Position numbers and translations under genes: made by a program. Positions 13,669 through 58,894 of a stretch of 64,000 bases of DNA are shown here, one piece after another. The stretch comes from Acidobacteriota bacterium (GTDB lineage: Bacteria; Acidobacteriota; UBA890; WLXD01). The stretch is taken from the NCBI GenBank assembly GCA_965248695.1, contig CBDFKD010000002.1:4352001-4416000 (forward strand), written 5' to 3'. A model generated the notes under the pieces. It was not told where the DNA came from and ran no database searches. It was given only the letters and a program-made list of their open reading frames with translations. The stretch's first letter is position 1. Each line of letters begins with the position of its first letter.

Positions 13669-15927
13669 ATGCGGGTCACCGCCGTTCTTCGCGTCGCCTT
13701 CTTGGGCGTTGCCGTCGCGGTGGCGTTGGTTGTCTATCTGCAGTGGCAGCCCGCCAGAGCGCTCGATCCCGCCACCGCCAGTGTCCCGGTCGCGGTCCTG
13801 CCGGAGAGCGACCGTGACGTCGATTCGCACACCGAGCGGATCAACTTCGTCAAGTACCGCGGTGACCGGCGGCTCTACGAGATCACCGCCGACGATCTCC
13901 TGGACTTCTCCGACGGTTGGAACACCTGGGCTGGCGTGCAGCTGCGAATCTTCGGCGAGGAAGGTGCGGGAAAGGACGTCATGGTAGTCGGCGACACCAT
14001 GCGAACGAGTGGCGAGGGCGATGACTTCGACGAGATTCGTATTCTCGGCAACGTTCGTGCCGAGCTCCCCAACGACGGCTACTTCGAGACGCGACGAGTG
14101 AACTACGACGTAGTTAGCGGAGTGGTAAGCAACTGCAACCGCAGCACGTTGTTCTACGCCGGCATGGAGTCGCGTGGCGACTGTCTTCATTTCCAGACAG
14201 CGGGCGACGTCACCAGCGGACAGGACGTTGTAGCTGAGGAGCTCCGGATGTGGGGCGACCTGACCGTACGACGGGGCAGCGATGATAGCGCCATGCCTGC
14301 TGGACTCCGCGGCGGCGCTGCGGAGATGCGCGTTCGGCCGGGGGGAGATCAAGTGCACCTTCAGGGTGACGCAGAATTGGAGATGGAGCAGGCGTCGATT
14401 CGCGGCGACAACATCGTGCTCGATGTCGGATCCGGCGTCAGTGAGTTGCGCGGGATCGAGGCCGCCGGTAGTGCGCGGGTGAGGTTCTTCCCGCGTGGCG
14501 ATAACCCGGCTGCCGTCGAGGAGCCTGCCGACGATGTCGACCTCGACACAGATGTCGAGAGTGCCGATGAGGGCCTCGCGGAAGAGGCGGACGGAGAGAA
14601 TAACGGTACGGAGATAGCGGCAGACCGAGACGCCGGCGAGACGGCGGCAAACGAGGAGGACAGCGCCGCACGGCTCCTCCGCGGGGCCACGATTCAGGTA
14701 GCGTTCGACGACGGCGAGCTTTCGGCCATCGAAGCGATCAGCGGGCGGCTAGGATCGCGGCTAACCCTGCCGGGTTTCGGGCGCCTGGAGGCGCGAGAGA
14801 TTGCTCTTCGTCCCGATGACGACCGCCAAGAAATCGAGGCGCGTCGCGGCGTTGCCTGGCGAGCGCGCGGCAACAGCGAGAGCCTGCGCGAGCTTACCGC
14901 AGCGGAGCTCCTGCTGATCGCCAGCGATGCCGGCCTCGAGAGCGTCGAGGCTGATGGCGATGTGATGGCAGATCTGGCGATGCCGGAATCGAAGGAGTCG
15001 CTGGTGTTCACCGGTGCTCGGTTGATTGCCGAGTGGACCGACGGCGTGCTCGACGAGGCAGACTGGCCCGACGGAGTCGAGTTCGAGGCCGACGGTCGTG
15101 CCCTCGTGGCCGGTGAAGCAAGCTATACGGACGTCGCTGCTGCCTGGACGCTTGCCGGGGATCCAGCACCGGTCTTGTCGGCGAACGGCGTGGATCTGTA
15201 CGCCGACGAAATGACGTGGCGCCCGGGAGAGGGTGTTGACGCCTATGGATCGGTACGCGCCGATGTGGCCGACCAATATCTGGACGCGGCCAGCGTCTTG
15301 TTCGGAGATGCTCCGGTGGTGGAAATGCGTGCGGAGTCGGCCGAGCTCGATGTCGACGGAGTCCTTATCCTGCGCGACACGGTGCAGGTCATCTGGGAGT
15401 CACAGTCGCTGGAGACCAGCGAGCTCCGACTGGAATCCGATCCAGGCCGCTTGCGCGCCGCCGGGAACGTCGAGTTGGTAGCCGTTGCATCGATCGAAGA
15501 AGATGGCGAGCCGGAGTACGCGACCGTGACCGCCAGCAACTTGCTCGTCGAGCAGGACGGGATGGAGCTACGTCTCGGCGGCACCGCCAGCCTGCGTCAG
15601 CGCACGCGCGTCATCGAGGCCGACAAGCTACGGGTCGATGTCAGCGACGCAGGCGAGTGGAGCGAGATCTTTGCCGAGCAGGCCGTCCGGTTCCGCGATA
15701 CCCAGGCGGAAGCGAATGGCGACGAGCTGACATACGACTTGGAGACCGGCGAGCTGGTCTTGCTGGGAACCTCCCTCGCCCCCGCTCGTTTCGCCTATGA
15801 GGGCATCGAGTACAAGAGTCAGGATGCCCTCCGCGTCGTTTACGAGGCCGACGAAGTGATCATCGAATCGACCGAGAACGGCAGGACACAGACGATCCCC
15901 GTGCCGCGCGAGGTGCAGAGCCCCTAG
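13669..15927 (+). CDS. LptC/LptA(OstA)-like LPS transport periplasmic protein with repeated beta-jellyroll segments
   Basis: N-terminal TM anchor; repeated beta-rich units (AAGNVELV, ANGDELTYDLETGELVLLG); expected position upstream of lptB-rpoN. Confidence 0.75.
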   Translation: MRVTAVLRVAFLGVAVAVALVVYLQWQPARALDPATASVPVAVLPESDRDVDSHTERINFVKYRGDRRLYEITADDLLDFSDGWNTWAGVQLRIFGEEGAGKDVMVVGDTMRTSGEGDDFDEIRILGNVRAELPNDGYFETRRVNYDVVSGVVSNCNRSTLFYAGMESRGDCLHFQTAGDVTSGQDVVAEELRMWGDLTVRRGSDDSAMPAGLRGGAAEMRVRPGGDQVHLQGDAELEMEQASIRGDNIVLDVGSGVSELRGIEAAGSARVRFFPRGDNPAAVEEPADDVDLDTDVESADEGLAEEADGENNGTEIAADRDAGETAANEEDSAARLLRGATIQVAFDDGELSAIEAISGRLGSRLTLPGFGRLEAREIALRPDDDRQEIEARRGVAWRARGNSESLRELTAAELLLIASDAGLESVEADGDVMADLAMPESKESLVFTGARLIAEWTDGVLDEADWPDGVEFEADGRALVAGEASYTDVAAAWTLAGDPAPVLSANGVDLYADEMTWRPGEGVDAYGSVRADVADQYLDAASVLFGDAPVVEMRAESAELDVDGVLILRDTVQVIWESQSLETSELRLESDPGRLRAAGNVELVAVASIEEDGEPEYATVTASNLLVEQDGMELRLGGTASLRQRTRVIEADKLRVDVSDAGEWSEIFAEQAVRFRDTQAEANGDELTYDLETGELVLLGTSLAPARFAYEGIEYKSQDALRVVYEADEVIIESTENGRTQTIPVPREVQSP

Positions 15928-16200
15928 CAGGCCGTGGTGGAAGTGTGGCGGGCCTGGCGACAGGGTCTTGCGAGGTGGAGGCAAGAGAGGAGGAGGCGAT
16001 TGCGACCCCATCGTCGACGACGAACGACGCAGCATACGCGCGCAACTCCCCTGTCGCCCAGAGGGTTACGGTGATTTGGGGCCACCTGCGGCGTTGGCCT
16101 TCCTCGACGATGGTTAGGGCATCGCCAGTGTCCGGCCGCCTTCCATATGGCCCCAACTCACCGCAACCAGGCCCGCCACACTTCCACCACGGCCTGCTAG
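15924..16200. mobile_element. MITE-like non-coding element 1 (~270 bp; 34-bp perfect inverted repeats including flanking CTAG)
   Basis: ctagcaggccgtggtggaagtgtggcgggcctgg (15924-15957) is the exact reverse complement of 16167-16200; CTAG (or TA) is duplicated at both ends; no transposase. Confidence 0.85.
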
Positions 16201-16207
16201 CGGGCGA

Positions 16208-17587
16208 TCACAGATAGTCGACCGGATCGACGCCGGCGAGCTCCGGCTCCAGGGGCTGCTCGACCTGGATCTCGCCGGCGCTCAGATCGAGAGCCTCCGG
16301 TGGCTCCAGCTCCTCGCCGGCGGCGTCGCGAACGACCAGCACGTACGGCCGCTCTGGGTCGAGAAGGTTGGTGCTTCGCGCCACCGCAATACGGCCATCG
16401 CTCAGTTGGAGGCACGTACCCGGCGGGTAGTAGCCGAGCATGCGCCGGAAGCCTGCGAAGAGCTCAGCGTCGAACTTGTCGGTGGCGTCCTTTTCCATGA
16501 TCCGCATCGCAACGTCCGGCGCCAGCGCGTCACGGTAGGGCCGATTCGACCGTAGCGCGTCGTAGACGTCGGCCAGGCAAACGAGCTCGGACACCAGATG
16601 CAGGGGCCAGCGACCATAGTCGGTGTGTTGCTCGTCGTACGCCAGCTGGTGCTCGTAGGCGACCACGAAGGCCAGATCGTCGGCCGGCGACTCGAGGAGC
16701 ATGCGGGCGCCATCATCGCCATGGCGCTGCATCACCTCCCACTCTTCGTCAGTCAGCTTCCCCGGCTTGTTGAGCACGCCGTCGGGCACCATGACCTTAC
16801 CGATATCGTGCAGGATCGCGGCCAGCGCGACCTGGGTGAGCGCTTCGTGCGGCAGCTCCAGCCAGCGGGCGATCGTCAACGACAGCATCGCCACGTTGAG
16901 CGAATGGGTGTACGAGTAGTCATCATGGTTCTTGAGGGTATGCAACAGCGAGAATGCCTGTGGCTGCGCCTCGACCACGTCGGCGAGGTCGCTGGCTAGC
17001 GCGACCGCATGGGTTATCGAATCGGTATCGATACCGTGTTCCAGACGGCCCTTGGGCTGATGCATGTTCTCCAGGTTGGCCGAGTAGACCTCCCAGGCGC
17101 GCGATAGTGTCGGTACGGTGCGTGCGGAGCCCGTCGGCCCGGTTCCTGCGTCGCCGCTCAGTGGCGCGGCTTCGATGTTCTGCACAGCTTCTTTCGCCAG
17201 AAGCGTCTCGATGCCGCCCTCGGCTTCGAGCGTCTCCTGCCGTGCGTTGAGGGCGCCGACCAGAGCCCTGAGCTCCCATCGGCGGACGCCGCGCGATATC
17301 GCCATGCGGCCGATGCCCTGGCGCCGGAACAGCTCCGACAGGCCCTCCAGAACCTCGCCGTGGACCGGAAGTGGCTCATTGTCGAGAATGAACTCTCCGT
17401 CAGCAAGGGCGAAGCGCAGGTCGCCCCTATCGGCCAGCAGTCCGACGGTGCGAAGGTACAGGTCGCGCATCGCGCCAACCGCTCGCGGGTGATCCTTCGG
17501 GTAGATGGCCTGGCTCTGTTGGGCGCACAGCAGGTGTCGACCGAGCTCCACCAGGACGTCTTCTCCGGAACTGCACTCACGCGGCAC
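16208..17587 (-). CDS. HD-GYP-like HD-domain phosphodiesterase
   Basis: HDDYSYTHSLNVA, ILHDIGK, LNKPGKLTDEEW, LADVYDALRSNRPYR; GYP segment is non-canonical. Confidence 0.88.
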   Translation of the reverse strand: MPRECSSGEDVLVELGRHLLCAQQSQAIYPKDHPRAVGAMRDLYLRTVGLLADRGDLRFALADGEFILDNEPLPVHGEVLEGLSELFRRQGIGRMAISRGVRRWELRALVGALNARQETLEAEGGIETLLAKEAVQNIEAAPLSGDAGTGPTGSARTVPTLSRAWEVYSANLENMHQPKGRLEHGIDTDSITHAVALASDLADVVEAQPQAFSLLHTLKNHDDYSYTHSLNVAMLSLTIARWLELPHEALTQVALAAILHDIGKVMVPDGVLNKPGKLTDEEWEVMQRHGDDGARMLLESPADDLAFVVAYEHQLAYDEQHTDYGRWPLHLVSELVCLADVYDALRSNRPYRDALAPDVAMRIMEKDATDKFDAELFAGFRRMLGYYPPGTCLQLSDGRIAVARSTNLLDPERPYVLVVRDAAGEELEPPEALDLSAGEIQVEQPLEPELAGVDPVDYL

Positions 17588-19742
17588 GGGCGGTGTCCTG
17601 TGGTTGTGGCGCTACGGCGGTCTGCGGCTCGCTCTGCTGCCGTTGGCGTCGCTGGATGCTCTTCACGGCAGCGATAGCTGCCCGGGCGGCCGTGCGGCGG
17701 CGCCGGCGAAACAGCCAGGCTCGACGCGTCAGCGGCACCAGGGCGCCGAGGGCGGCCTCATCGCCGATCTGAGCGAGCGCTCTCGCGGCCGCGGCGATCC
17801 GGCGCGTGTTCCGACCACTCCAATTCGGCAGCGACAGATGCTCCAAGAGAATCTCCTGGGAGCGGCGCTTGAACCGTTGCCGGAAGGCACGGAGGGCGGC
17901 GACGCGTACTTCCAGCGTCGTATCCGCAAGTGCCTCGAGCAGGACCGGCTCAGAGCACTCGTCGGGCAGAAAAGCGAATCCTCCGACGGCCTCGCGTCGG
18001 ACCGTGGCGTCGTTATGACGTGCCGCCAGCCCGAGCAGTGGGGCGAGATCTGGCCGGCGCAGCTGGGCGAGCACCCAGACGAGATTCCGCACGAAAGGAA
18101 TGCGCTCGTCATTGAGCCGCTCGCCGAGGTCTTCCGTTGGCAGCGTCTGCATGCCACCGAGGATGCGCCGTAGATGGTGCCGATACGAGGGTGATCGAGC
18201 TGTGGCGAGCGCCTCGAGCAGCTCCGGCAGGAGGTCGACTCCCAGGTGGTCCACGATTCTCCACAAGACTGGGAAGCTCTCGCCTGCCGAACGTGCCAGA
18301 CGCCGGACGAGGAGCACCGCCAGCTCCGGTTGCTGTATCTGCGCCAGTGCGCGGCGGGCGAGCTCGCGCTCCTCCGTGCTGCGGCCGGTGTCGCTGGCGT
18401 GATGAGCGAGAGTCGAGAGAATCTCCTCGAGCAGCCCCAGCTCGTTGTTCTGCACGATGGTTTCGAGGGAGCTCTCGATGGCATCGATCAAATGCTCGTA
18501 GAAACGCGAGTCACGATTGCTTATTAGCAGGGAATGCGCGATTCGCGCCTTGCGCACTCGCAACGAGTCCTCGCCAAGCTCGCCGAAGCGAGCGCGGATC
18601 TTACCGCTGTTCCACGGCGACTTGCCTTCCGACGACTCGTGTTCCAAGGCCGCGCGATAGTCGTCGGGCACGAACGGGTCCGGGTTCTCGCCAGTCATGA
18701 CCTCGACGAGATGGGGCCATGCCTCTTGGACATCAACTGAGGAACGCTCGGCAAGGTGTACCGCCCGGCTGGCGATCTGAGATCGGTCGGTGCGACCCGA
18801 CACAACGCGCGACAGGAACTTGTAGAGCCGCGGTGTTGCCCGCGAACGGGATTGCATCGCGTAATTCACCAACCGCATGACCTGCCCACCGGAAAGCGCC
18901 TGGGCGACGCGCTCGGTGAGGTCTATCGGGTCGCTGACCTCGGTGCCCGCCTGCAGGGGCAGAGGGTCGGTGAGCACCTCGATCCAGGCTTCCGGGTCGA
19001 GGTCGTCGAACAGGCCGGCAGACGTCTCGACCAGTGTCTCGATCAGGTTGGCGACATCGGGCGCGCGCCCGGCGATCTGTTCGACGAGCAAGGTGAAGCC
19101 GTCGGTTTGCGAGTGTCGGGCCATCTCCGAGGGTTGACGGGCCGGATCCAGCGCCCAGCGGAAGAAATCGCCGGCGCACTCCGCGTCCGCCGCGAGCTCC
19201 TCCCATTGCAGCGGAGGAGCGCCGCTCGGGCCCCCGAAGCCGGCCAAGATCTGGCCCCAAACGTCGTCCGGGTCGAACCGATGGGAGCCGCCATCGACGA
19301 GCCCTTGAAGCTGTAGCGGATCGGCGTGGATTCCGGGGATACCGCCGAGCAGCAGCGTGTCTCCGTCGTGCTCGAACTCCTGCTGCGCCAGGGTGGTGAT
19401 CAGCGTTCGCACCGAGTCCATCGGCAGGCCGGGGCCCAACGTCAGGCGAGCGACGCGGCGCCGATGCAGCTGCGCAGCCAGTCGCTCGAGAATGACCGAC
19501 CGTGTCTGGCGCGTTCGCGGCGCGGTCCAGGAGATCTCCTCGGGGCGGATTTGTATCGATAGAGGCTCGGTGCCTATCGCCGCCACCAGGGAGGAGTGCG
19601 CCGTCTCGAGCGCCGTGACCACCGCGGGGGCCGAAGCTGGGTACATCCGACTGGTGTGCACCGCAATGTCGAGTCGGCGCAGTGCTTCCGCCGGGTCGTT
19701 GTCCGGCTCCGTGCTGTCCAGGTGCAGGGTGTCGGTGCACAT
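17577..19742 (-). CDS. HEAT repeat-containing protein
   Basis: C-terminal HEAT units (FVRNLVWVLAQL, VRREAVGGF, VRVAALRAF, AAARALAQIG); stop overlaps the HD-GYP start. Confidence 0.8.
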   Translation of the reverse strand: MCTDTLHLDSTEPDNDPAEALRRLDIAVHTSRMYPASAPAVVTALETAHSSLVAAIGTEPLSIQIRPEEISWTAPRTRQTRSVILERLAAQLHRRRVARLTLGPGLPMDSVRTLITTLAQQEFEHDGDTLLLGGIPGIHADPLQLQGLVDGGSHRFDPDDVWGQILAGFGGPSGAPPLQWEELAADAECAGDFFRWALDPARQPSEMARHSQTDGFTLLVEQIAGRAPDVANLIETLVETSAGLFDDLDPEAWIEVLTDPLPLQAGTEVSDPIDLTERVAQALSGGQVMRLVNYAMQSRSRATPRLYKFLSRVVSGRTDRSQIASRAVHLAERSSVDVQEAWPHLVEVMTGENPDPFVPDDYRAALEHESSEGKSPWNSGKIRARFGELGEDSLRVRKARIAHSLLISNRDSRFYEHLIDAIESSLETIVQNNELGLLEEILSTLAHHASDTGRSTEERELARRALAQIQQPELAVLLVRRLARSAGESFPVLWRIVDHLGVDLLPELLEALATARSPSYRHHLRRILGGMQTLPTEDLGERLNDERIPFVRNLVWVLAQLRRPDLAPLLGLAARHNDATVRREAVGGFAFLPDECSEPVLLEALADTTLEVRVAALRAFRQRFKRRSQEILLEHLSLPNWSGRNTRRIAAAARALAQIGDEAALGALVPLTRRAWLFRRRRRTAARAAIAAVKSIQRRQRQQSEPQTAVAPQPQDTARAA

Positions 19743-19768
19743 TGTCGATCTCAGCGTCGGACTGGCGA

Positions 19769-20209
19769 TCAGCTCGCCTCGCGTAGCTGGGAACCGGTGT
19801 ACTTGTCTGTGATCGCGGTCCGGAGGTCGCCATCCGCGGCGGCGACGGGTAGCACGCAAAGCTGCGTGGCCTCTTCGATCTCCGTGATGACCGACTGATC
19901 CAGCGGATCCACCATCGCCAACACCAAGTGCCCTCCGGTTCGTACGAGCCCGAGACAGCAGTGACGTTCGGCCAACTCATGCGGCACGGTTAGCACCACC
20001 TCCGTGCTCACCTTCGCGAGCGCGGCGGCGCTTACCGAGGCCTTCGGCTGCGCTAGTAGTGCCTCGACGATGTCCGCACGCGAGACGACACCCATCTGCA
20101 GGAGAATCTCGCCGACCTGTCGGTCGGTCTCGCGCTGGCGCCTGAGCGCTTCGCGTAGCTGATCGCGTCCGATCAATCGCCGGAACAGCAGTATCTGGCC
20201 GAGCTTCAT
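19769..20209 (-). CDS. Stand-alone MshEN / GspE N-terminal domain protein (putative c-di-GMP receptor)
   Basis: Tandem motifs KLGQILLFRRLIGRDQLREALRRQ and QVGEILLQMGVVSRADIVEALLAQ, then VPHELAERH...LVLAMVDPLD; no ATPase domain. Confidence 0.85.
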   Translation of the reverse strand: MKLGQILLFRRLIGRDQLREALRRQRETDRQVGEILLQMGVVSRADIVEALLAQPKASVSAAALAKVSTEVVLTVPHELAERHCCLGLVRTGGHLVLAMVDPLDQSVITEIEEATQLCVLPVAAADGDLRTAITDKYTGSQLREAS

Positions 20210-20258
20210 TGGCCCATCCGAAGTGAACTGTGAGTGGGTCTACTCGTAATGGGAACAC

Positions 20259-20308
20259 TAAAAGATAGTAAAAAGCAATAAAAATCTGTTAAAGATCATA
20301 AAGGATAA
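20259..20308. promoter_or_regulatory. AT-rich array of five 10-bp-phased A-tracts in the divergent MshEN/lptB intergenic region
   Basis: taaaagatag taaaaagcaa taaaaatctg ttaaagatca taaaggataa. Confidence 0.6.
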
Positions 20309-20506
20309 TGTTGGACCTCATGGCCTCGTATGGCACAATAGAGTCGGTCGAAGCGGTTTCGATCGTCGCCCGGCCACGGCCTAGTGAGGCGGGCCGGGAC
20401 GAGGCCCCTGGAAGGGCGTAAGCGACTTCAAACAAAAGAGAAATCGCCACTACGACGATCTCGGGTTACGTTGACCCGGCCATCGTCACATTGGTACGAT
20501 ATCTGC

Positions 20507-21325
20507 ATGCAGGAACCTTCGAACCCCTCGGACACCGCGAGCGCGGCGCCGCTCAGCCAGTCGGCTTCACCGGTGCGACCAGATCCGGACCAGCCCGTGC
20601 GGACCTTGCAGGTCGAGGGGCTCGTCAAGGCATACAGTGGCCGACGCGTCGTGGACGGGATCAATTTCGGTATCTCTCAGGGTGAGGTCGTCGGGCTCCT
20701 TGGTCCCAACGGCGCCGGCAAGACGACTACGTTCTACATGGTGGTCGGGCTGGTCCGTCCGGACGCAGGGCGCATCCGCGCCGCCGACATCGAGATCACC
20801 CGAGAGCCGATGTACATCCGAGCTCGCCGCCACGGAATCTCCTATCTGCCGCAAGAGCCCTCGGTTTTCAGGCGTCTCACGGTGGAGGAGAACCTCATGG
20901 CGATTCTCGAGGGCTTGCGACTGACCCGTCAGGAGCGTCGCCGCCGTTGCAAGGTATTGCTGACGGATCTCGGGCTTACCCATCTGGCCGATCATCGTGC
21001 CTACACGTTGTCTGGAGGCGAACGGCGACGCGTCGAGATCGCTCGGGCGCTGACGACCAACCCCTCGTTCCTGCTTCTCGACGAGCCGTTCACGGGTATC
21101 GATCCGATCGCCATCAACGATATCCAGCAACTCGTACGTGAGCTGCGTATGCGCGGTATCGGTGTGCTGGTAACTGATCACAATGTGCGCGAGACCCTGC
21201 GCATTACCGATCGCGCATACATCATCACGGACGGCCAGATCTTTCGTTCCGGCGCTCCTGGAGATCTCGAGCGTGACTCACAGGTCCGCAAGATCTATCT
21301 GGGCGAATCCTTCAGCCTCAACTGA
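20507..21325 (+). CDS. lptB: LPS export ABC transporter ATP-binding protein
   Basis: [56 protein letters not shown]. Confidence 0.96.
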
Positions 21326-21328
21326 GCC

Positions 21329-22768
21329 ATGGCACTAGAGCAGCGACTTTCCGTACGACTGCAGCAACGGCTGGTAATGACGCCTGCCCTGCAGCTTGCG
21401 ATCAAGCTCCTGCAGCTGAACAAGCTCGAGCTCGAGACCACGTTGCAGCAGGAGATGGTGGAGAACCCGGTCCTCGAGGAGCACGAGGAGCTCGAGGAAC
21501 CGAGTGTCGCGGAGCGCGCGGAAGCTGAAGCTGCGGCGGAGACACCGCTCGAAGAACCGGCAGCGGGCACGGAAGAGCTGGCCGATAGCTTTGACGCCGA
21601 CGAGTTTTTCTCGAAGATGTTCGACTACCAGCCAACCACCGCGAATATGCGCGAGGTGGGTGAAGCGCCGCCGTTCGAGAGCACTTTGACCGCCGTGCCG
21701 TCGCTGGTTGATCACCTGATGTGGCAGTTGGAGATGACCGACCTGGGGCCGGGCCAGATGGCGATCTGCCAGGCGATCTTGGGCAATCTGGACGAGAGCG
21801 GGTACTTACGCGCCAGCAGCACAGAAATCGCCGCGATGGGGCCATGGCCGGTGCTCGAGGTCGAGCGCGTGTTGGCCAGCGTGCAGGCGTTGGATCCGCT
21901 CGGCGTGGCAGCTCGCGATGTGCGCGAGTGCTTGTTCCTGCAGCTCGAGCGCCTAGGCGTGGAGAGCCAGTTGCCAGGCGTCATCGTGCGCGATCACATG
22001 GACGCGCTAACGGCACATCGCTTCAAGGATATCGCCCGAGCCACACGCACGCGGTTAGAGGAGATCGCCGAGGCGGTCGAGATCATCCGTGCACTCAATC
22101 CCAAGCCGGGGCAGGCGTTCACGGCAGAAGCGCCGCGCTATATCGTGCCGGACGTATACGTCCGCAAGGACGGCGACGAGTACATCGCCACCGTCAATGA
22201 CGACGGACTGCCGAAGCTGCGTGTGTCGCGCCTCTACCGCGACATGTTGCGCTCGGACAACGGTCTCTCCAAACAGGCTAGCGAGTATCTACAGGAAAAA
22301 ATGCGCTCAGCGCTGTGGCTCATCAAGTCCTATGGGCAGCGCCAGCGCACCATCGGCAAGGTAGCGGCGAGTATCCTCGTTCAGCAGCGCGACTTCTTCG
22401 ACCATGGACTGGCGGCTTTACGCCCGATGGTGTTGCGGGACGTTGCTGAGGACATCGGTATGCACGAGTCGACCGTGTCACGCGTGGTCAACGGCAAGTA
22501 CATGCACACGCCGCAGGGCGTGTTCGAGATGAGGTTCTTCTTCCATAGCGGCCTCGGGCACGCTAGTGGTTCCGACGTCTCGTCGGTCAGCGTGAAGGAC
22601 AAGATCCGCAGGCTCATCGACGCCGAGGAAGCTCGGAAGCCACTGTCTGACGCGGCTATCGCCAATCGGCTCAAGGAGGGAGGGCTGGTGATCGCGCGGC
22701 GGACGGTGGCGAAGTACCGTGAGGAAATGGCCATCCCTGCCTCGAGGGCCCGGCGCGCGATAGGCTAG
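21329..22768 (+). CDS. rpoN: RNA polymerase sigma-54 factor
   Basis: MTPALQLAIKLLQL, HESTVSRV, RpoN box ARRTVAKYRE. Confidence 0.98.
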   Translation: MALEQRLSVRLQQRLVMTPALQLAIKLLQLNKLELETTLQQEMVENPVLEEHEELEEPSVAERAEAEAAAETPLEEPAAGTEELADSFDADEFFSKMFDYQPTTANMREVGEAPPFESTLTAVPSLVDHLMWQLEMTDLGPGQMAICQAILGNLDESGYLRASSTEIAAMGPWPVLEVERVLASVQALDPLGVAARDVRECLFLQLERLGVESQLPGVIVRDHMDALTAHRFKDIARATRTRLEEIAEAVEIIRALNPKPGQAFTAEAPRYIVPDVYVRKDGDEYIATVNDDGLPKLRVSRLYRDMLRSDNGLSKQASEYLQEKMRSALWLIKSYGQRQRTIGKVAASILVQQRDFFDHGLAALRPMVLRDVAEDIGMHESTVSRVVNGKYMHTPQGVFEMRFFFHSGLGHASGSDVSSVSVKDKIRRLIDAEEARKPLSDAAIANRLKEGGLVIARRTVAKYREEMAIPASRARRAIG

Positions 22769-23169: not shown

Positions 23170-23190
23170 GGGCTATCGGGACGTAAACGC

Positions 23191-50508: not shown

Positions 50509-51078
50509 TCAGACGTGCCAGGGACTGAACCTCGGCAAGCGCACGCTCTGGGATCCGCTAGATGCCCTGGCGTCGCGAAACGTCGCCTCGATGGCGTTTG
50601 CCTGGAGGTCGAGCTCGGTGGCCCCGAGAGTGGCGGCATCACCGGCGAGGCGATCGAGTGCGGTCGCCGCCGCCCGCAGTGCCTCCTCGAGGTCGGGTGC
50701 CGCGTCGGCCGCTGAACGACAGGCGGCGGCTGTGGCGAGCAGGTGCTCGATCGCCGGATCTGCCCCGGCGTCCGCGTTGTTGAACACCGGGAGCTGGCGG
50801 TGCTCCTCGAACGCGGCCTCGACCTGTTGCTTGCAGTACGACAGGGAGTTCACCCTCGCTGCCGACCCGCTGGTGGCATCGAAGCGGTCGAAAGCGCGGT
50901 TGATGCCTTGTAGCACCGTCTCCAGCGGGATACCGCGGTCGTACCACCGTTCCACGACTTGCCAGTCGCGCGGCGATAGCAGCAACGGCCCGTCGCGTCG
51001 AAGGCCGAAATGCCGCTCGACGCGGCGAAAGTAGTCGTCGCGCCGCCCCTCGTTGTCGTCTGTCGGCGGGCTGCTCAT
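50509..51078 (-). CDS. Hypothetical protein with a possible DnaD-like domain
   Basis: YFRRVERHF...LLLSPRDWQVVERW...GIPLETVLQGI...VNSLSYC. Confidence 0.65.
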   Translation of the reverse strand: MSSPPTDDNEGRRDDYFRRVERHFGLRRDGPLLLSPRDWQVVERWYDRGIPLETVLQGINRAFDRFDATSGSAARVNSLSYCKQQVEAAFEEHRQLPVFNNADAGADPAIEHLLATAAACRSAADAAPDLEEALRAAATALDRLAGDAATLGATELDLQANAIEATFRDARASSGSQSVRLPRFSPWHV

Positions 51079-51299
51079 CGTTCGCGTGGCTCACGCAGAT
51101 TGGAGACGGTCGTCGAGATGCCGCGATCCGCGGCAACTGGCGAACGTTCCTTTACCGCTACGGGAAGCGCAAGCCACATGGGCCCTCCTGAGTCGAATCG
51201 CTGCGGTCCTGAGGCGATCCTCGACCTGCTAATATCGATCTCTTGTCCACCGGGCGAAATGGGATCGTATGCGTGGGCTCTTGGGGAGAGAGCCGGTCC

Positions 51300-54122
51300 A
51301 TGGGGGTTGAAGCCACGACAGGCACGCCCGCGGCGGCGGCAGCAAGGGAGCCGATCGTCGTTCTTGGCGCGCGGGTCCACAATCTGCAGAACGTCGATGT
51401 CGAGATCCCGGCAGGCTGCCTGGTTGTCATCACCGGTGTGTCGGGCTCCGGTAAGTCGAGCCTCGCCTTCGACACGATCTACGCCGAAGGCCAGCGCCGC
51501 TACGTGGAGTCGCTGTCGGCCTACGCTCGGCAGTTCCTCGCGCGGGTGGACAAGCCGCTGGTGGATGACGTTCGTGGAGTGTGTCCGGCGATCGCCATCC
51601 AGCAACGGGTGCCGCCGCGCAACTCCCGCTCGACCGTCGGGACAGTGACCGAGATCCAGGATTACCTGCGGCTGCTTTTCGCCCGCGCCGGTACGACCAT
51701 TTGCCCTAGTTGCGGTGATGCCGTACGCGCCGACGCGCCAGGCGAAGTTGCCGAGCGTCTGCTGCGGGAGAATCCGGAGGTCGCGGCGGTGATCGCTTAC
51801 CCGCAGCCGATTCCGTCAGACGAGGCGCCTCGCCTCGAGCTACTCAAGCGCCTACTCAAATCGGGCTTCCGCCGACTGCTGATCGGCGGTGCCGTGCGAG
51901 AGCTGGTGCCCAGTGAGCTCGAGGACCTCGCCGTGAACCTGGGAAACGAGGAGATTGACGTCATCGTCGACCGTTTGAGCCTGCGCCCGCCGGCGCACGA
52001 GAGGCTGCTCGACTCGGTAGGGGTTGCCTTTCGGGAGGGAGGGGGCCGCGCGCGCGCCTGGATCGAGGGTGACGCCGGACTCCAGCCACGCTACTTCGAC
52101 GATCGTCATCGATGCGCCGACTGCGACCGCGATTTCCTGCGGCCGGAACCGCGGCTGTTCTCGTTCAACAATCCCTACGGCGCCTGTCCCGAATGCAAGG
52201 GGTTCGGGAGCATCATCGAGATCGATCTCGACAAAGTGTTCCCCGATCGCCGGCGTAGCCTCGCGGACGGAGCGGTGGAGCCGTGGAACAAAGACAGCAG
52301 GCATCGGGTTCGCAGCTCGATGCGCGCCTTCGCCGAGGCCAACGGAATCCCACTGGACGTGCCCTGGGGTGATCTCGAGGCGGAGCAACGCGAGGCCATA
52401 CTCGACGGCGGGGGAGGTTTCGTCGGCGTGCACGGGTTCTTCGCCGGGCTACGCAAGAAGCAACATAAGCTCCACGTTCGCGTGTTGCTGGCGCGCTACC
52501 GCGGGTACGTCGACTGCCCCGCTTGTCACGGCACGCGGCTGCGCGTCGACGCGCACGCAGTCCAGGTTGGCCGGCGCACCCTGCCAGAGGTCTCGTGCAT
52601 GAGCATCGGCGAGATCGCCGCTTTCTTCGACGAGCTCGAGTTGCCAGTTCAAGCGGCGGTGGTCGTGGACCAGGTGCTGCGAGAGATCCGCGCGCGACTG
52701 CAGTACTTGATAGAGGTCGGCCTCGACTACGTCACGCTCGATCGGCTCACCGGAACGCTCTCGGGTGGCGAGGCGCAGCGCATCAGCCTGGCCACGTGTC
52801 TCGGCTCGATGCTCGTCGGCTCGATGTACGTGCTCGACGAGCCCAGCGTCGGGCTTCACCCGCGTGACAACGAGCGCTTGATCTCGATCCTCGAGAGGCT
52901 GCGAGATCTCGGCAACACCGTACTGGTGGTCGAGCACGACAGACAGATGATCGAGGGTGCCGATCACCTGATCGACATGGGTCCCGGAGCCGGGGTTCTC
53001 GGTGGCCGGGTGATTTTCGCCGGTGACCCCGACAAGATCGTCAGCGCCAGCGAATCGGTCACCGCGGCCTACATATCAGGTCGTTGTCGCGTCCCGATGC
53101 CGGCCCTGCGGCGGCCGCCGATGCACCATCTACGGGTTATCGGAGCACGCCAGCACAACCTGAAGAATATCGATGTCTCGTTCCCGCTCGGTGTTCTGTG
53201 CTGCGTGACCGGAGTCTCGGGATCAGGCAAGAGCACGCTCATTCACGACATACTCCACGCCGGCCTGCTTCGGCGCTTGGGGGAGTGGAACGGAGCAGTC
53301 GGTGATCATGACGACATCGAAGGCGCCGGCCTCATCCGCCAGGCGGTGCTCGTCGACCAGGCGCCGATCGGGCGTAGCGCGCGATCGAACCCGGTGACCT
53401 ACGTAAAGGCGTTCGACCCCATCCGCAAGCGCTTCGCGGGTACGCGCGAGGCTCGTGCCCGCGGATACGGCCCCGGGCACTTCTCGTTCAACGTCGCCGG
53501 TGGACGCTGTGAAGCGTGCGAGGGCGCTGGACAGATTCTCGTCGAGATGCAGTTCCTGCCCGACGTCAACTTGCCGTGCGAGGAGTGTGGCGGCACGCGC
53601 TTCAGGCGCGAGACGCTCGATATTCGGGTTCGCGGCAAGAACATTCACGACGTTCTCGAGCTCACCGTCGGGGAGGCGCGGCGGTTCTTCGCCGACTTGC
53701 CGAAGGCCGAGGCGCGGCTCAAGGCGCTGGAAGACGTGGGGCTCGGCTACCTGCGCCTCGGACAGCCGTCGAGCACGCTGTCGGGGGGCGAGGCACAGCG
53801 CGTCAAGCTTGCGTCGCACCTCCTCCAGGGGGGCGGCAAGGGGATGTTGTACCTGTTTGATGAGCCCACCACGGGGTTGCACTTCGATGACATCGCCAAG
53901 TTACTGTTCGCGCTGAATCGACTGATTGACACCGGCGCATCGGCCATCGTGATCGAGCACAACCTCGATCTCGTCAAGGCCGCAGACTGGGTCGTCGATC
54001 TGGGACCCGAGGGCGGCGATGGCGGCGGCTTCCTGGTCGCGGAGGGTACCCCCGAGGAAGTGGCGTTGTGCGATGGATCGCATACGGCTCGTTACCTGCG
54101 CGACGTCGTTGATGATGAGTAG
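51300..54122 (+). CDS. uvrA: Excinuclease ABC subunit A
   Basis: Two ABC cassettes (GVSGSGKSS and [17 protein letters not shown] twice), zinc fingers, [13 protein letters not shown]. Confidence 0.96.
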
Positions 54123-55173
54123 CAGCCCGCTGGCGACCGACGCGCCGATCGATCTGCGCAGCGACACGGTGACGCGACCCACCGAGGCGATGCGACGTGC
54201 GATGGCGACCGCCGAGGTCGGTGATGACGTATACGGCGAGGATCCCACCGTCGAGCGCTTGCAGGACGTCGGCGCGGACTTACTCGGCAAGCCCGCAGCG
54301 CTGTTCATGCCGACCGGCATGATGGCCAACCAGGTGGCGCTGCACCTGCAGGCGCGGCCGGGCGACGAGGTGCTGATCGAGGCCTCCGGACATGGACACG
54401 ACTGGGAGCTTGGTGCGGCGGCAGTGCTCTCCGGCTTGCAGATGCGCCCTGTCCTCGGCGACGCCGGCGTGCTGCTTCCAAGCCACGTCGAGCCCTATCT
54501 GCGCTCCCGCCCTTACTACCAATCGCGCCCGACGATGATCGTGCTGGAGAACACCCACAACATGGCGGGCGGGCGGATATACCCACTCGAGGTGGCCCGC
54601 GAGGTCGTGGCCACGTGTCGAGACGAAGGACTCCGGGCACATCTCGACGGGGCGCGACTGTTCAATGCTGCGGTGGCGAGCGGGCGATCGGCCGCGGTGC
54701 TTGCGGCCGAATTCGATTCGGTGATGGTGTCGCTCTCCAAGGGACTGTCGGCGCCTGCGGGCGCGCTGCTGGCCGGAGGTGCCGATTTGATTCGCGAGGC
54801 GCGGCGAGTGCGCAAGATGTTCGGCGGCGGCATGCGGCAGATCGGAGTGCTGGCAGCGCCTGCGCTTGTGGCGCTGGAGGGTGGAATCGACCGGCTGGCC
54901 GAGGATCACGCCAATGCCCGTCGCTTGGCGGACGGGCTATTGGCGACGGGACGCGTCGCGCTGACGTTCGGTCACGTCGATACCAACATCGTGGTCTTCG
55001 ATGTCGACGGCCTGAGCGCGCAGAGCTTCTGCGACCGGGCAGTGGACAGGAGAGTGCTCTGCGCGCCCACCGCGGCCGGGCAGGTTCGGCTGGTCATCCA
55101 CCGCCATATCACCGCGCCGGTCGTCGACGAGGCGCTTGCGCGACTTGCGCCGCTCGTCGACGGCGCCAGTTAG
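54112..55173 (+). CDS. ltaE: Low-specificity L-threonine aldolase
   Basis: IDLRSDTVTRPT, GDDVYGEDPT, ENTHN, HLDGARLFNA, SLSKGL. Confidence 0.94.
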   Translation: MMSSSPLATDAPIDLRSDTVTRPTEAMRRAMATAEVGDDVYGEDPTVERLQDVGADLLGKPAALFMPTGMMANQVALHLQARPGDEVLIEASGHGHDWELGAAAVLSGLQMRPVLGDAGVLLPSHVEPYLRSRPYYQSRPTMIVLENTHNMAGGRIYPLEVAREVVATCRDEGLRAHLDGARLFNAAVASGRSAAVLAAEFDSVMVSLSKGLSAPAGALLAGGADLIREARRVRKMFGGGMRQIGVLAAPALVALEGGIDRLAEDHANARRLADGLLATGRVALTFGHVDTNIVVFDVDGLSAQSFCDRAVDRRVLCAPTAAGQVRLVIHRHITAPVVDEALARLAPLVDGAS

Positions 55174-56426
55174 CCGCCCGGCGGGAAGTCGGCGACTTGA
55201 TCCATGTAGCCGCGGAAGTTGCGCAACGTCTCCCGCAGGCTGTCGCCGCCGAACTTCTCCACACACGCGTCTGCCAATACGAGTGCGGTCATCGCCTCGC
55301 CTACCACCGCTGCGGCGGGAACTGCGCAGGTATCCGAGCGCTGAACGACAGCGTTGACCGCCTCGCCGCTGTCGATATCGACCGACGGCAGCGGCTGGCG
55401 TAGTGTCGACAACGGTTTCATGTAGACCGTCACGCGTAGCTCATCGCCGTATGTCATGCCGCCTTCGGTGCCGCCGGCGCGGTTGGTCGGGCGGCCCCAG
55501 GCGTCGTCTGGCGAGCGTACGATCGCGTCGTGCGCCTTCGAGCCGGGCTGTGCGGCGCACCAGATGGCCGGCCCGATCTCGACCGCTTTCTGTGCCTGGA
55601 TCGACAGCAACGCCTGACCGAGCCGTGCCTCGAGCCGCCGGTCCCACTGGATGTGGCTCCCGAGCCCCGGCGGCAATCCCGTGCCGATCACCTCGAACGC
55701 GCCGCCCAGCGTTTCGAGGTCGTCATGGGCGGCGTCGATCGCCGCGATCATGGCGGCCTCGACGTCGGCATCAGCGCACCGCACCGGCGAGGCGTCGGCT
55801 CGCTCACGAACCGTCGCCACGGACACCGGTAGAGTACCGTCCGCGAACGCAGCGCCGCCGATCCGGGTGACGTGGCTCGCAATCTCGATGCCGAGGTGCG
55901 CCAGGAACTGCTTGCACAGTCCACCAGCCGCCACGCGCACAGCGGTTTCGCGTGCGCTGGCACGCTCCAGGATGTCGCGCAGGTCGGCACGGTCATACTT
56001 CAGTCCGCCGGCGAGGTCGGCATGCCCCGGCCGCGGTCGCGTGATGCGGCGGATATCGACAGCGGAGGGTCGATTGCCGCTCTCGGCGACGCCGGCCGAT
56101 GCTGGTTCCGTGCCCTCGGAACCGACCGAGTCGGGGGCCTCGACAGCCATCACCGTCTCCCAGTTGATCCAATCGCGGTTCTCGATCAGCCACGCGATCG
56201 GGCTGCCGAGGGTCTCGCCGAGCCGTACTCCGCCCACGATTCGGGCTGTGTCAGCCTCGATCTTCATGCGCTTGCCGCGTCCATGCCCCCCCATCCGGCG
56301 GCGCAGGTCGGCATTCAGCGCGTCCATATTGATGGGAACGCCGGCCGGAAGGCCTTCGAGCAGGCCGACCAGCATCGGTCCGTGAGATTCCCCGGCGCTG
56401 AGAAAGCGCAGACAGCGCAGCGACAC
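55170..56426 (-). CDS. aroC: Chorismate synthase
   Basis: AGESHG, RPRPGHADL, ERASARETA, NRAGGTEGG, RSDTCAVP. Confidence 0.97.
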   Translation of the reverse strand: MSLRCLRFLSAGESHGPMLVGLLEGLPAGVPINMDALNADLRRRMGGHGRGKRMKIEADTARIVGGVRLGETLGSPIAWLIENRDWINWETVMAVEAPDSVGSEGTEPASAGVAESGNRPSAVDIRRITRPRPGHADLAGGLKYDRADLRDILERASARETAVRVAAGGLCKQFLAHLGIEIASHVTRIGGAAFADGTLPVSVATVRERADASPVRCADADVEAAMIAAIDAAHDDLETLGGAFEVIGTGLPPGLGSHIQWDRRLEARLGQALLSIQAQKAVEIGPAIWCAAQPGSKAHDAIVRSPDDAWGRPTNRAGGTEGGMTYGDELRVTVYMKPLSTLRQPLPSVDIDSGEAVNAVVQRSDTCAVPAAAVVGEAMTALVLADACVEKFGGDSLRETLRNFRGYMDQVADFPPGG

Positions 56427-56608
56427 GAGTGTCCCCTGGTTAGAGAGTAGGTTTCAGCGTACGACGACGAGTTTATGTCGTGGAGGATGGCGCTGCGGTC
56501 CGAATCATGCCCGGGGTACCGCTGGCAGTACCGACAACGAAGCCCGGGCCTGAGATACTTGCCGCCTACCGACTGACCATTGCTGCTTGGACCGAGCGCG
56601 CTATCGTC

Positions 56609-58174
56609 ATGATCAAGGTTCTGGACGCCGCCGCCATGCAGGCCTGCGATCGCGCCGCGATCGATGACTACGGCATCGCGGGCGATCTGCTGATGGAGAA
56701 CGCCGGGCTCCAGGTGGTCGAGGCGCTGGCGGATCACTTCGACGATCAGCCTCCCGCGACCGTGGCAGTGCTCTGTGGCCGGGGCAACAACGGCGGCGAC
56801 GGTTTTGTCGTGGCGCGCCACCTCCACAACATGGGCACCATGGTCGCGGTCTATCTCTTTGGCCCGGCGTCGGCGCTGCGCGATGCTGCCGCGAGCAACC
56901 ACCGTGTCGCCACGGCGGTCGGCGTGCCGGTGACCGAGGTGCTCGACGAGGAGGCGTGGGCACGGTTGGCGGCCGATCTGGCCGATGTTGACTGCATCGT
57001 CGATGCAATGCTGGGAACAGGGCTCGATAGCGCTGCCCGGGGCGTCATCGCGGCAGCGATCGAGAGCGTCAATGACGCCGATGTCCCCGTCGTTGCGGTG
57101 GATGTGCCGAGTGGCCTGTCGGCCGATTCCGCAGCCATCCCGGGCGCGGTGGTCGAGGCGGTCTTGACGGTCGCGTTCGCAGCTCCGAAGGTCTGTCACG
57201 TTCTGACGCCGGCGCGCGAGACGTGTGGAGATGTGGTGGTAGCGGACATCGGCCTGCCCGAGCCGCTTCTCGAGGCGGCGGTGCCCTCGTTGTGGCTGCC
57301 GACACCAGAGGACTGTGCGGCCGGATTGCCTCTCCGCTGGTCCGACAGCCACAAAGGCGACTACGGGCGTGTCGTCGTTATTGGCGGCGCTCCTGGCACC
57401 GCTGGCGCCGCGGTGCTCGCGGCTCGCGGGGCATTGCGGGGTGGGGGAGGTCTGGTGCACGTGTTGTGCCCCGAGACCGCCTATCTACCGATCGCCTGTC
57501 AGTTGGTCGAGGCCCTGGTGCATCCTGTTCCCGCCGGTGACGGTGGTGGCCTGAGCGCGGAAGCGGACGAGGCGGCGGGTGAGGTGCTGGCGGCAGCGAA
57601 CGCGGTGGCGATCGGCCCGGGCGTCGGGACCTCGCCGGAGACCGTCGCGCTCGTACGACGGCTGGCGGTGGATTGCACCAAACCCATGGTGATCGACGCT
57701 GACGGCCTCAACGCGCTCGTCGGCGTTGCCGAAGGGCTGCGGGAGGCAGCGGCGCCGCGTGTTCTGACACCCCACCCCGGAGAGGCGGCGCGACTTCTCG
57801 GAGTTGACGTGCCGGCGGTGCAGGCTGACCGCGTCGCCGCCGCCACCGAGCTGGCGGAGAAGACGCGCGCGGTGGTTCTGTTGAAAGGGCACGACTCCCT
57901 CACGGTGGACCCCGGGTGTGCGCCGGTGGTCAACATGACCGGCAATCCGGGGATGGCCACCGGCGGTACAGGCGATGTCCTGACCGGCTTGATCGCTGCC
58001 CTCATTGCGCAGGGGTTGCGGCCCTGTCCGGCTGCCTGGACCGGGGCCTGGCTACATGGCCTGGCGGGCGATCTGGCGGCGGCGCGCGTCGGTCAGATCG
58101 GCTGCCTGGCGACGGATCTCGCCGATGAGCTGCCGCGGGCGTTTGCGGCCGTGGAACCGGAGGAGGAGTCTTGA
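56609..58174 (+). CDS. nnr: Bifunctional NAD(P)HX epimerase/dehydratase
   Basis: LMENAG, GRGNNGGDG, VDVPSG, HKGDYG, DADGLN, TPHPGE, ATGGTGDVL. Confidence 0.95.
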   Translation: MIKVLDAAAMQACDRAAIDDYGIAGDLLMENAGLQVVEALADHFDDQPPATVAVLCGRGNNGGDGFVVARHLHNMGTMVAVYLFGPASALRDAAASNHRVATAVGVPVTEVLDEEAWARLAADLADVDCIVDAMLGTGLDSAARGVIAAAIESVNDADVPVVAVDVPSGLSADSAAIPGAVVEAVLTVAFAAPKVCHVLTPARETCGDVVVADIGLPEPLLEAAVPSLWLPTPEDCAAGLPLRWSDSHKGDYGRVVVIGGAPGTAGAAVLAARGALRGGGGLVHVLCPETAYLPIACQLVEALVHPVPAGDGGGLSAEADEAAGEVLAAANAVAIGPGVGTSPETVALVRRLAVDCTKPMVIDADGLNALVGVAEGLREAAAPRVLTPHPGEAARLLGVDVPAVQADRVAAATELAEKTRAVVLLKGHDSLTVDPGCAPVVNMTGNPGMATGGTGDVLTGLIAALIAQGLRPCPAAWTGAWLHGLAGDLAAARVGQIGCLATDLADELPRAFAAVEPEEES

Positions 58175-58620
58175 GCCGCGCTCGCGACTACATCACGAAC
58201 AGCGTCGAGGAGACCGAGCGCGTTGGCGCCGGGCTCGGGCGTCGACTGCGCGGCGGCGAGGTGATTCTGATCTTCGGGCCGTTGGGGGCGGGCAAGACAC
58301 AGTTGGTGCGCGGTATCGCTGCCGGCCTCGGACTCGACCCGAGCCAAGTGTCGAGCCCGTCGTATGCCCTGATCAACGAGTACCCCGGGCGGTGTACGCT
58401 CTACCATGTCGACTTATACCGGCTGAGCACGGCGGATCTTCCGGACCTGGGTCTCGAGGATCTCTACGGGCGGGGCTGCGTGGTGGCAATCGAGTGGGCC
58501 GAGCGCCTCGAGGAGGCGGGATGGGATCTGGGCTCATCGATCATCGTCGAGGTCGACCACCATCCGGACCGACCGGAAGCCCGCATCATCGGCGTCGACG
58601 AGGCGGTTACAGGCAGTTAG
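58171..58620 (+). CDS. tsaE: tRNA t6A biosynthesis ATPase TsaE
   Basis: GPLGAGKT, VSSPSY, YHVDLYRL, IEWAE; follows nnr. Confidence 0.95.
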   Translation: MSRARDYITNSVEETERVGAGLGRRLRGGEVILIFGPLGAGKTQLVRGIAAGLGLDPSQVSSPSYALINEYPGRCTLYHVDLYRLSTADLPDLGLEDLYGRGCVVAIEWAERLEEAGWDLGSSIIVEVDHHPDRPEARIIGVDEAVTGS

Positions 58621-58894
58621 TGGCCTGTAACAGATGATCGTTGCCTATCGCAGATGGGATTTGCGGGTGAGATCAAGGCGCGGCGACGCAGTCGATGCTA
58701 GGGGCATCATCAAGGAGCCGCAACGCCGTTATCGCCCGCAACTGCCCATCTGTCCAGAGGATGGCGGCGAACTGGGCCGCCTGCGGCGTTGCTCCTCCTT
58801 GAAAATGGGCGAACATTGTCTCGTCGGACCGCCTGGCATCCGGGCCCATTTCGTCACCACGATAGGCAACGATCATCTGTTACAGGCCACTTAG
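58617..58894. mobile_element. MITE-like non-coding element 2 (271 bp, 58620-58890; 31-bp perfect TIRs; TTA direct repeats)
   Basis: gtggcctgtaacagatgatcgttgcctatcg (58620-58650) is the exact reverse complement of 58860-58890; TTA at 58617-58619 and 58891-58893. Confidence 0.85.

Follow-up and report, generated by a model that had tools for sequence, protein, structure and literature searches.

How two non-coding elements of almost equal length come to share a folded interior between quite different ends, and in which kind of molecule that interior acts, is the question raised by a 64,000-nucleotide stretch of the genome of an Acidobacteriota bacterium (assembly GCA_965248695.1, contig CBDFKD010000002.1, positions 4,352,001 to 4,416,000 of the forward strand). 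The whole of this stretch is referred to here as the window, and the two elements, each lying at a gene end within it, as E1 and E2. [quoted passage not shown] Here the conserved part is the interior, a folded cassette of near-constant length that lies between fully replaced terminal inverted repeats (TIRs) in many Acidobacteriota genera.

Both elements are non-coding and consist of near-perfect TIRs of ~34 bp enclosing two arms of ~110 nt set head to head, with a short central linker between the two internal hairpin domains in E1 and E2 alike. Their parts, in window coordinates, are the following.

15924..16200, no strand: element 1 (E1 family), 277 bp with the CTAG on either side counted in
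15924..15957, + strand: E1 left TIR, CTAG plus 30 nt, kept in ~26 further copies
15951..16063, + strand: E1 left arm, L-type, sense on the + strand (covariance model 71.7 bits, E 2e-15)
16059..16173, - strand: E1 right arm, R-type, sense on the - strand (covariance model 100.9 bits, E 1e-22)
16167..16200, - strand: E1 right TIR (inverted-repeat search)
58617..58894, no strand: element 2 (E2 family), 278 bp, inserted at the TTAG that is the TsaE stop codon
58617..58650, + strand: E2 left TIR (inverted-repeat search), its tip like the IS630-family ends of relatives
58644..58759, + strand: E2 left arm, L-type, sense on the + strand (covariance model 95.7 bits)
58755..58866, - strand: E2 right arm, R-type, sense on the - strand (covariance model 92.8 bits)
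58860..58894, - strand: E2 right TIR (inverted-repeat search)

The TIRs of E1 pair over 37 nt (15921-15957 with 16167-16203, 97% complementary) and those of E2 over 42 nt (58609-58650 with 58860-58901, 90% complementary), the window copy of E2 having one additional base at its right end. In E1 the duplicated target is the TA at 15925-15926 and 16198-16199. The internal landmarks that had first drawn attention to the pair are found at the positions given for them in the initial annotation (CGCAACT at 16041 and 58737, CCAGAGG at 16058 and 58754, CCTGCGGCGTTG at 16085 and 58780), and an inverted-repeat search of the window bears out that closing stems of different sequence still pair (GGCGACAGGG/CCCTGTCGCC and CAGATGGG/CCCATCTG). 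The E1 left arm closes through 15956-15965 with 16049-16058; its helix P3 is degenerate, with the purine-rich GGAGAGAGGAGG opposite GACGACGAAC. The right arms close through 21 nt in E1 (16064-16084 with 16148-16168), where the basal stem is unbroken over 21 bp and carries the conserved core CAAGGCG..GAC..CGATG-loop-CATCGTCGAGGA..CAACGCCGCAG, and through 17 nt in E2 (58762-58778 with 58843-58859). Whole-element RNA folds beat dinucleotide shuffles on both strands of E1 and E2 (z -10.5 to -12.9), and the predicted single-strand shape of either element on either strand is a Y, composed of a long terminal stem and two arms. A search of the window with a covariance model built from the arms of its own genome returned exactly these four arms.

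Conservation of this fold is first evident within the genome that holds the window (G000; 5.89 Mb, 65% GC, two contigs, 96% complete), in which a profile search with the four window arms gave 156 arm matches, 32 of them solo arms. The order of the arms is always sense then antisense, in 50 simple pairs and never in reverse. Among 102 distinct arms, 84% of cells were paired against 33-51% with slid partners, and double changes were seen at 27 of 39 pairs against 11-16 in slid controls; the arm structure behind these counts was assigned manually from folds of single sequences, because the MAFFT alignment, with one arm type a column out of register, gave a poor RNAalifold consensus. Beyond this genome, 150 arms from 100 loci of other Acidobacteriota metagenome-assembled genomes (MAGs) had 92.4% of cells paired against 28-50% when slid, double changes at 34 of 39 pairs and a covariation score of 0.403 against at most 0.084, in an alignment that was fitted to the model's structure and thus leans towards it.

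The spread of the arms is wide and uneven. By covariance model they are present in 30 of 61 relatives; among related genomes copy number varies between 1 and at least 61. A sample drawn evenly from the phylum contains them in 40 of its 151 genomes and in 29 of its 105 genera (one positive genome, G071, is unpublished). The exact core pattern occurs in at least 115 stretches, nearly all from MAGs labelled Acidobacteriota (Thermoanaerobaculia, Terriglobia and others), with no match among viral contigs, and blastn of E1 against plasmids gave no match. The pattern is also present in contigs of MAGs labelled Deltaproteobacteria and Nitrososphaerota, the latter an archaeon (L149 and L193), which may reflect binning contamination or rare transfer. 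Elements of other genomes again consist of head-to-head arm pairs, measure 265-302 bp with a mode of 279-283 and carry many different TIRs, with CTAG at both ends in 29 of 45. In 119 element pairs whose TIR identity is below 0.4 (mean 0.30, the chance level), the apical arm cores are nonetheless 0.77 and the basal stems 0.69 identical.

Two arm types recur across the phylum, which gives each element a polarity. The L-type arm contains the helix TTGCG...GCAAC, in many cases together with an unpaired stretch rich in purines, while the R-type arm follows the pattern GATGCAAGGCG..GACG..TCGAGGAG..CAACGCCGCAG. Fixed across genera are the asymmetric loops (GAC.. facing GAGGAG), a CAA bulge and, in 138 of 147 arms, a G-U pair, and such features argue for more than a palindrome that perfects itself. 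In more distant genomes the same core is found as solo hairpins of ~113-134 nt without TIRs, whose basal stems differ and still pair. One of these, a solo R-type hairpin at L091 (G006) 1502-1614, is the sole arm match of its genome and adjoins the apparent 3' end of an opposite-strand gene for a tRNA or tmRNA. The expectation that a covariance model would recover further arms was borne out in the own genome, in relatives and phylum-wide, and the interior is, as the initial annotation had it, a conserved single-strand fold with compensatory changes. Since these changes and the fixed purine-rich loops persist under fully exchanged TIRs in many lineages, the cassette is selected as a folded single strand.

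No described family corresponds to it. Rfam 15 yielded no matching family for either element: at the gathering score only a tRNA was reported for the whole window, and in E-value mode the best matches to the elements had E 0.15-9.8, far below gathering scores. The tRNA, a gene at 2393-2465 on the + strand, is the sole match of the window at that threshold. A full-text literature search found no description of the element, although supplementary MITE catalogues such as that of PMC11602168, which lie outside such a search, may list it.

Mobility, which had been proposed from the window, is evident from the many copies in the own genome, as well as from the empty orthologous sites described below. 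Blast gave 122 and 124 matches for the two elements, and ~128 loci are copies or fragments. E1 has ~26 additional near full-length copies (83-94% identity) and a one-armed derivative of ~175 bp in ~10 copies with common breakpoints; E2 has ~25 full-length copies (72-98% identity), with one subfamily that carries a different inner TIR half on both sides. The copies differ by indels and pair covariation, not by codon patterns. Copy alignment finds the TIRs well conserved inside each family, and even between E1 and E2 the tips share a (C/T)TAG start with GGCC-(N)-GT nearby, so that their TIRs, claimed at the outset to be unrelated, differ between the families without being wholly unrelated. Likewise, the view of these elements as the opposite of a plain MITE holds between families, where the interior is kept and the TIRs are replaced, but not within one.

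Many copies are incomplete. A scan for TIR tips found 133 and 132 tips, which form 34 and 34 simple pairs and leave 97 solo tips belonging to truncated or internally deleted copies, some reduced to palindromic stubs of only ~25-45 nt. The smallest stubs lie between CTAGs (G000:C2:1180650-1180675, 1318002-1318027, 3854956 and 5756186) and are made up of a TIR tip and the last ~7-10 nt of the opposite TIR, several with an identical junction; their appearance suggests either internal deletion at microhomology or what remains after excision. One of the stub sites (C2:3716778-3716814) is occupied by a full element in the sister species G003. In four cases an E1-like element is nested in E2 (G000:C2:733547-734108, 4669339-4669902, 4883273-4883821 and 5094744-5095306). 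The nested copies were inserted in the E2 left arm, at the TAG of its apical loop (GATGC-TAG), which means that the arms themselves offer this insertion system a target. Insertion sequences (ISs) abound in the own genome, including a 1260-bp IS3-type element at ~66 loci, most copies of which are 100% identical (e.g. G000:C2:55544-56803), and a 1404-bp IS256-type element at ~20 loci (e.g. C2:105817-107220); the E1 copy at C2:2899915 is broken by an IS3 copy.

The strand on which the fold is read can be judged from the wobble pairs. G-U outnumbers A-C in the arms by 285 to 67, and by 112 to 67 when two wobble-rich columns are left aside, with G-U in excess at 24 pairs and the reverse at 9, while of 134 arms 114 fold more stably in sense than in antisense. 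This excess on the sense strand of each arm, already noted for arms of the window, together with the stability of the sense fold indicates that the fold is read on one strand, 5' to 3' inward from the nearer end.

The level at which selection acts is a separate matter. Private mutations of own-genome copies in Watson-Crick stems comprise 14 G-U, 13 A-C, 22 other mismatches and 5 compensated changes, and their density is 10.0 per 1000 sites in stems against 11.3 in loops; inserted copies seem to decay about neutrally. Orientation relative to the replichore is without bias (15/13 and 13/10). Neutral decay, the many wrecked copies and unbiased orientation argue that the host does not preserve individual copies, and selection seems to work through the lineage that propagates, not on each inserted copy.

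These same observations could be read as the absence of any function in the interior, which would then descend from one successful, horizontally spread MITE, with pairing maintained by replicative template-switching inside quasi-palindromes and TIRs swapped by recombination with local IS ends. Such a history is quite improbable. It would accord with the patchy distribution (40 of 151 genomes), the massive decay into 97 solo tips and short remnants, private mutations that look neutral and the lack of orientation bias with respect to genes, solo arms and replichore, and elements that insert into each other and beside ISs would have had chances for end exchange. Template-switching, however, should perfect hairpins, whereas the asymmetric loops, the CAA bulge and the G-U pair are fixed across genera. 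Moreover, basal stems of entirely different sequence still pair, cores remain 77% identical at chance-level TIR identity, and solo hairpins with the same core and different stems occur in distant genomes.

As to the kind of element, which the initial annotation could not assign, E1 and E2 are filed as non-autonomous DNA transposons, namely IS630/Tc1-type MITEs, with the helper lacking in this genome. The assignment follows from a TA duplication in CTAG and, in part, from TIR tips that in E2 more than in E1 are like those of the IS630 elements of relatives. IS630-family transposition is described as targeting and duplicating TA (PMC2170065), and a preference for TA within CTAG stands in the title of a reference cited there. 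In the own genome, CTAG stands at both ends in 39 of the 54 full-length copies that could be anchored; deviating ends (GTAG, TTAG, CTAA) differ in the outer base and keep the inner TA-G and C-TA constant, which agrees with duplication of TA at a preferred C-TA-G and with termini G...C. IS630-family (DDE_3) transposases are present in 17 of 61 relatives, and the elements examined there (G002/G004, G007, G020 and G039) are 1143-1207 bp long, flanked by CTAG, begin with tips CTAGT(G/C)TCCTG... and encode a DDE_3 transposase of 370-390 aa between two ends that are imperfect copies of each other. The E2 tip is identical to these IS630 ends at 17-18 of 24 positions and a MITE tip in another MAG at 19 of 24, the tips of the E2, L167 and L086 elements together spanning 17-19 of 24.

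A 1207-bp IS630-family IS in G007, whose copies are >99% identical (L239, L226, L259-L263), abuts or lies near a MITE end or fragment in the reference locus and in all six loci compared with it, and at L239 IS and MITE have one CTAG in common. This proximity at CTAGs indicates that the IS and the MITEs use the same target. As a composite parent of the MITEs the pair was ruled out, the IS having inserted at MITE ends. We infer that IS630-family transposases mobilise the elements in trans and that this genome has lost the helper; because no IS630 transposase was found in it, the copies there are probably no longer mobile.

Other affiliations are not supported. For an IS5-family MITE, with a 4-bp YTAR duplication, the own genome has no match to PF01609 (DDE_Tnp_1), the one IS5-related Pfam model searched, and ends of the form CTAG...CTAA and GTAG...CTAG favour a 2-bp duplication. 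A palindrome of the REP/REPIN (RAYT) or IS200/IS605 type finds no support either, there being no Y1 (HUH) transposase gene, that is no PF01797 (Y1_Tnp) match, in the own genome. The IS3- and IS256-type elements of that genome, identified by self-blast, have other ends and were dismissed as autonomous partners. Longer copies carrying a transposase, for which a search had been suggested, did not appear: apart from one 4451-bp pair of degenerate tips, no TIR-tip pairs at IS-like spacing were found in the own genome, and the IS630 elements of relatives have no arms.

The position of the copies relative to genes can be understood from the target site. Both window elements begin, as was first described, at the TAG stops of + strand open reading frames (ORFs; 13669..15927 and 58171..58620), and the stops of convergent - strand genes lie just beyond (16208 and 58922). 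No functional relation exists among the four flanking genes, which are listed below.

13669..15927, + strand: gene with LptD_N/LptA-like domain, 752 aa, its TAG stop being the left CTAG of E1
16208..17587, - strand: convergent gene, HD_5 / HD domain, its stop 8 nt past E1
58171..58620, + strand: TsaE, its TAG stop being the left TTAG of E2
58922..59935, - strand: convergent gene, Lactamase_B_2 (metallo-beta-lactamase) fold, its stop 28 nt past E2

ORFs of 90 and 86 aa that run across the elements (15945-16217 and 58634-58894, both on the + strand) are almost certainly spurious and constitute a risk of mis-annotation. Examination of orthologous sites, advised at the outset, found both window sites empty in all four same-genus genomes (4/4), where the orthologues end in GTAG or CTAG followed by a spacer of 10-60 nt; the elements thus landed in the stop codon itself, which the duplication kept intact. 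About 9 of 17 loci with an element in G003 are likewise empty in G000.

Over the whole genome, none of 54 copies lies inside a called gene and 24 supply the TAG stop of one, against 552 of 4485 CTAG sites genome-wide; the gene calls are crude GC3-based ORFs covering ~70% of the genome, so that the stop-codon counts are lower bounds (a gene flanking E1 was missed). The genes that flank these copies are convergent in 19 cases, tandem in 27 and divergent in 8. By the same crude calls, TAG stops occur in 1495 of 3692 ORFs (40%), a high share that places many CTAG targets at gene ends. The 3'-end position is the product of the CTAG target and selection against insertion into genes, the purging of which leaves copies at TAG stops.

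In sister species, independent insertions have struck one and the same stop-codon CTAG, the occupant being of another subfamily, in another orientation or of the other family. Sites shared between G003 and G000 often hold such differing occupants, and a selection test on orthologous copies is accordingly not clean. At one shared site (L253 of G003 against G000:C2:5130691-5130970) three coordinated changes affect both TIR arms, GGTGGGTCTGG/CCAGACCCACC against GGCGGGCCTGG/CCAGGCCCGCC and GAAAGTG against GGAAGTG, and the difference could be replacement by another subfamily or an in-place compensatory change.

Taken as a whole, the explanation to which roughly even chances are given is that these are IS630/Tc1-type MITEs with a conserved folded two-arm cassette, the fold of which acts in RNA. 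A transposase supplied in trans would bind the ~34-bp TIRs, as suggested by their anatomy and by the relatives, excise the element and paste it into the TA of a CTAG with duplication of the TA. In this GC-rich genome many of the available CTAGs hold a TAG stop, which the duplication would leave intact, and with insertions into genes purged the copies would gather at gene ends. Each arm reads sense inward from the nearer end, and a single strand would fold to a Y of TIR stem and two arms. A flanking gene that reads into the insertion would, on the preferred account, meet a sense arm and the 34-bp TIR duplex, together forming a stable, orientation-independent 3' structure or a processing site, perhaps for RNase III as reported for the Neisseria Correia elements. 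Insertions at gene ends would thereby become harmless or cheaper, and the lineage would keep spreading. That the fold works in RNA is the preferred but conjectural part of this account.

A broader form of this proposal, which should be taken as tentative, holds that the cassette is an undescribed phylum-wide structured RNA, a Y-shaped module of ~210 nt with a sequence-free 34-bp closing duplex and freely exchanged IS630-type ends, whose RNA activity decides which transposon lineages succeed. RNase III processing, insulation of transcription or decay, and specific protein binding at the fixed purine-rich loops would be candidate activities. It is possible on these terms, with the same limited confidence, that a MITE superfamily exists which is defined by its RNA cargo and not by transposase-binding ends.

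Several observations weigh against the IS630-type, RNA-acting explanation. As regards the IS630 link, the E1 tip matches the IS630 ends of relatives at only 9-13 of 24 positions, and the abundant IS630 element of G039 matches the TIR of the G039 MITE at 10 of 24. In the own genome there is no PF13358 (DDE_3) match, NF033545 gives only weak matches on IS3-type (rve-type) genes, and tblastn with six IS630 transposases of relatives finds nothing. A DDE_3 match is present in 12 of 30 arm-carrying relatives and in 5 of 31 arm-free ones, no arm lies within the IS630 elements of relatives that were examined, the only matches being adjacent MITEs, and the 150-arm alignment has the built-in lean noted above. 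As regards the RNA, inserted copies have no detectable constraint, which speaks against a host function per locus. No bias appears in which arm lies beside the gene whose stop is used (L 13 against 11 R or unclassified, with many arms unclassified), solo arms are sense to the incoming gene in 10 cases and antisense in 7, and the one-armed derivatives with the same breakpoints have multiplied to ~10 copies.

In another account, an enzyme other than an IS630 transposase would recognise the arms and, in the manner of an endonuclease, cut at the terminal CTAGs to leave TA overhangs, in which case any TIR that pairs would do. CTAG ends in most copies, the failure to find an IS630, IS5-type (PF01609) or Y1 (PF01797) transposase in the own genome, the 18 of 30 arm-bearing relatives without a DDE_3 match and the unrelated TIRs of the G039 MITE and G039 IS630 element would all fit. 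Such an enzyme is nevertheless very unlikely, with no candidate identified: at deviating ends it is the outer base that varies and the inner TA-G that stays, as for TA duplication, the tips of E2, L167 and L086 resemble IS630 ends at 17-19 of 24 positions, and the G007 IS630 elements insert at the same CTAGs.

Action of the fold in DNA must also be weighed. The arms would be cis-acting structures for transposition, formed as a cruciform or as folded single-stranded DNA, which recruit the transposase or an architectural protein of the host, or join the ends, and so raise mobilisation, with no RNA involved. Selection on the propagating lineage and not on inserted copies fits such a role, as does the symmetry of the arms to both ends, always sense inward; the length held tightly at 265-302 bp across unrelated TIR families and the lack of orientation bias relative to genes are also in its favour. 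Set against these, the IS630 insertion sequences of the same genomes do without arms, and IS630/Tc1 cut-and-paste is described as proceeding without a hairpin intermediate and with the transposase alone sufficing (PMC2170065). Furthermore, the G-U excess and the conserved G-U pair implicate one strand, where a cruciform would fold both, replichore orientation is unbiased, and one-armed variants still multiplied. On balance an action in DNA appears unlikely, less so than the absence of function considered above.

Should the fold act in RNA, it could in principle do so in trans, as a two-armed small RNA of ~210 nt freed from any transcript by cleavage of the TIR duplex and of use to the host, for instance as a sponge for protein at its GGA-rich loops. 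A perfect 34-bp duplex around a conserved structured core and the conserved GGA-containing loops are compatible with this, as are the Neisseria Correia elements, for which RNase III binding with cleavage or protection has been reported (PMC2649163). Copies that decay neutrally and are often truncated, and a copy number that varies from 1 to at least 61 among related genomes, many having none, make a host-serving small RNA the most improbable of the explanations.

The consequences depend on the molecule. If the fold acts in RNA, as is preferred here, it would represent a new widespread bacterial RNA motif and a transposon equipped with its own device for being made harmless at gene ends; if it acts in DNA, it would hint at a so-far unrecognised requirement of IS630-type transposition. 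In practical terms, these repeats sit on stop codons, break metagenome assemblies and create spurious ORFs, and a covariance model would help annotation.

Among known systems, the IS630 insertion sequences of relatives (G002/G004, G007, G020, G039) are closest by their ends, being CTAG-flanked with CTAGT... tips and the same target. Unlike E1 and E2, they are 1143-1207 bp long, transposase-coding and arm-free, and none was found in the window's genome. REP/REPIN (RAYT) and IS200/IS605 palindromes are likewise multicopy intergenic hairpins of conserved structure, and are recognised as folded single strands. They differ in that they depend on a Y1 (HUH) transposase and do not duplicate TA, whereas the E1 and E2 families have no strand bias relative to replication and reside in a genome without a Y1_Tnp match.

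The Correia repeat enclosed elements (CREE) of Neisseria also possess an inverted repeat around a conserved core. They are about half the present length and form one family with one repeat type and a single-hairpin, not Y-shaped, fold. Their transcript has been reported to be bound by RNase III and cleaved or protected, with a change in neighbour gene expression (PMC2649163). CREE belong to a different phylum, and the RNase III link is for the present elements an analogy only, the two having been likened by description.

The closest counterparts in kind are the IS630/Tc1-mariner-type MITEs such as MITEEc1, listed as MITEEc1_IS630 in a 2024 survey (PMC11602168), which are similarly small, ORF-free, multicopy and intergenic, carry TIRs with a TA duplication, depend on a transposase in trans and give a transcript that folds as a whole into a long hairpin. 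Prokaryotic MITEs are described as typically AT-rich (PMC10969869), whereas E1/E2-type elements are GC-rich. Unlike in IS630-type MITEs, the interior here is a covarying two-arm cassette that persists under replaced TIRs across many genera of one phylum, a separation from MITEEc1 that is made by description. The kind of element is therefore one already known, an IS630-type MITE, and it is the conserved, structured interior under varying ends that is unusual, on a far larger scale than was first seen.

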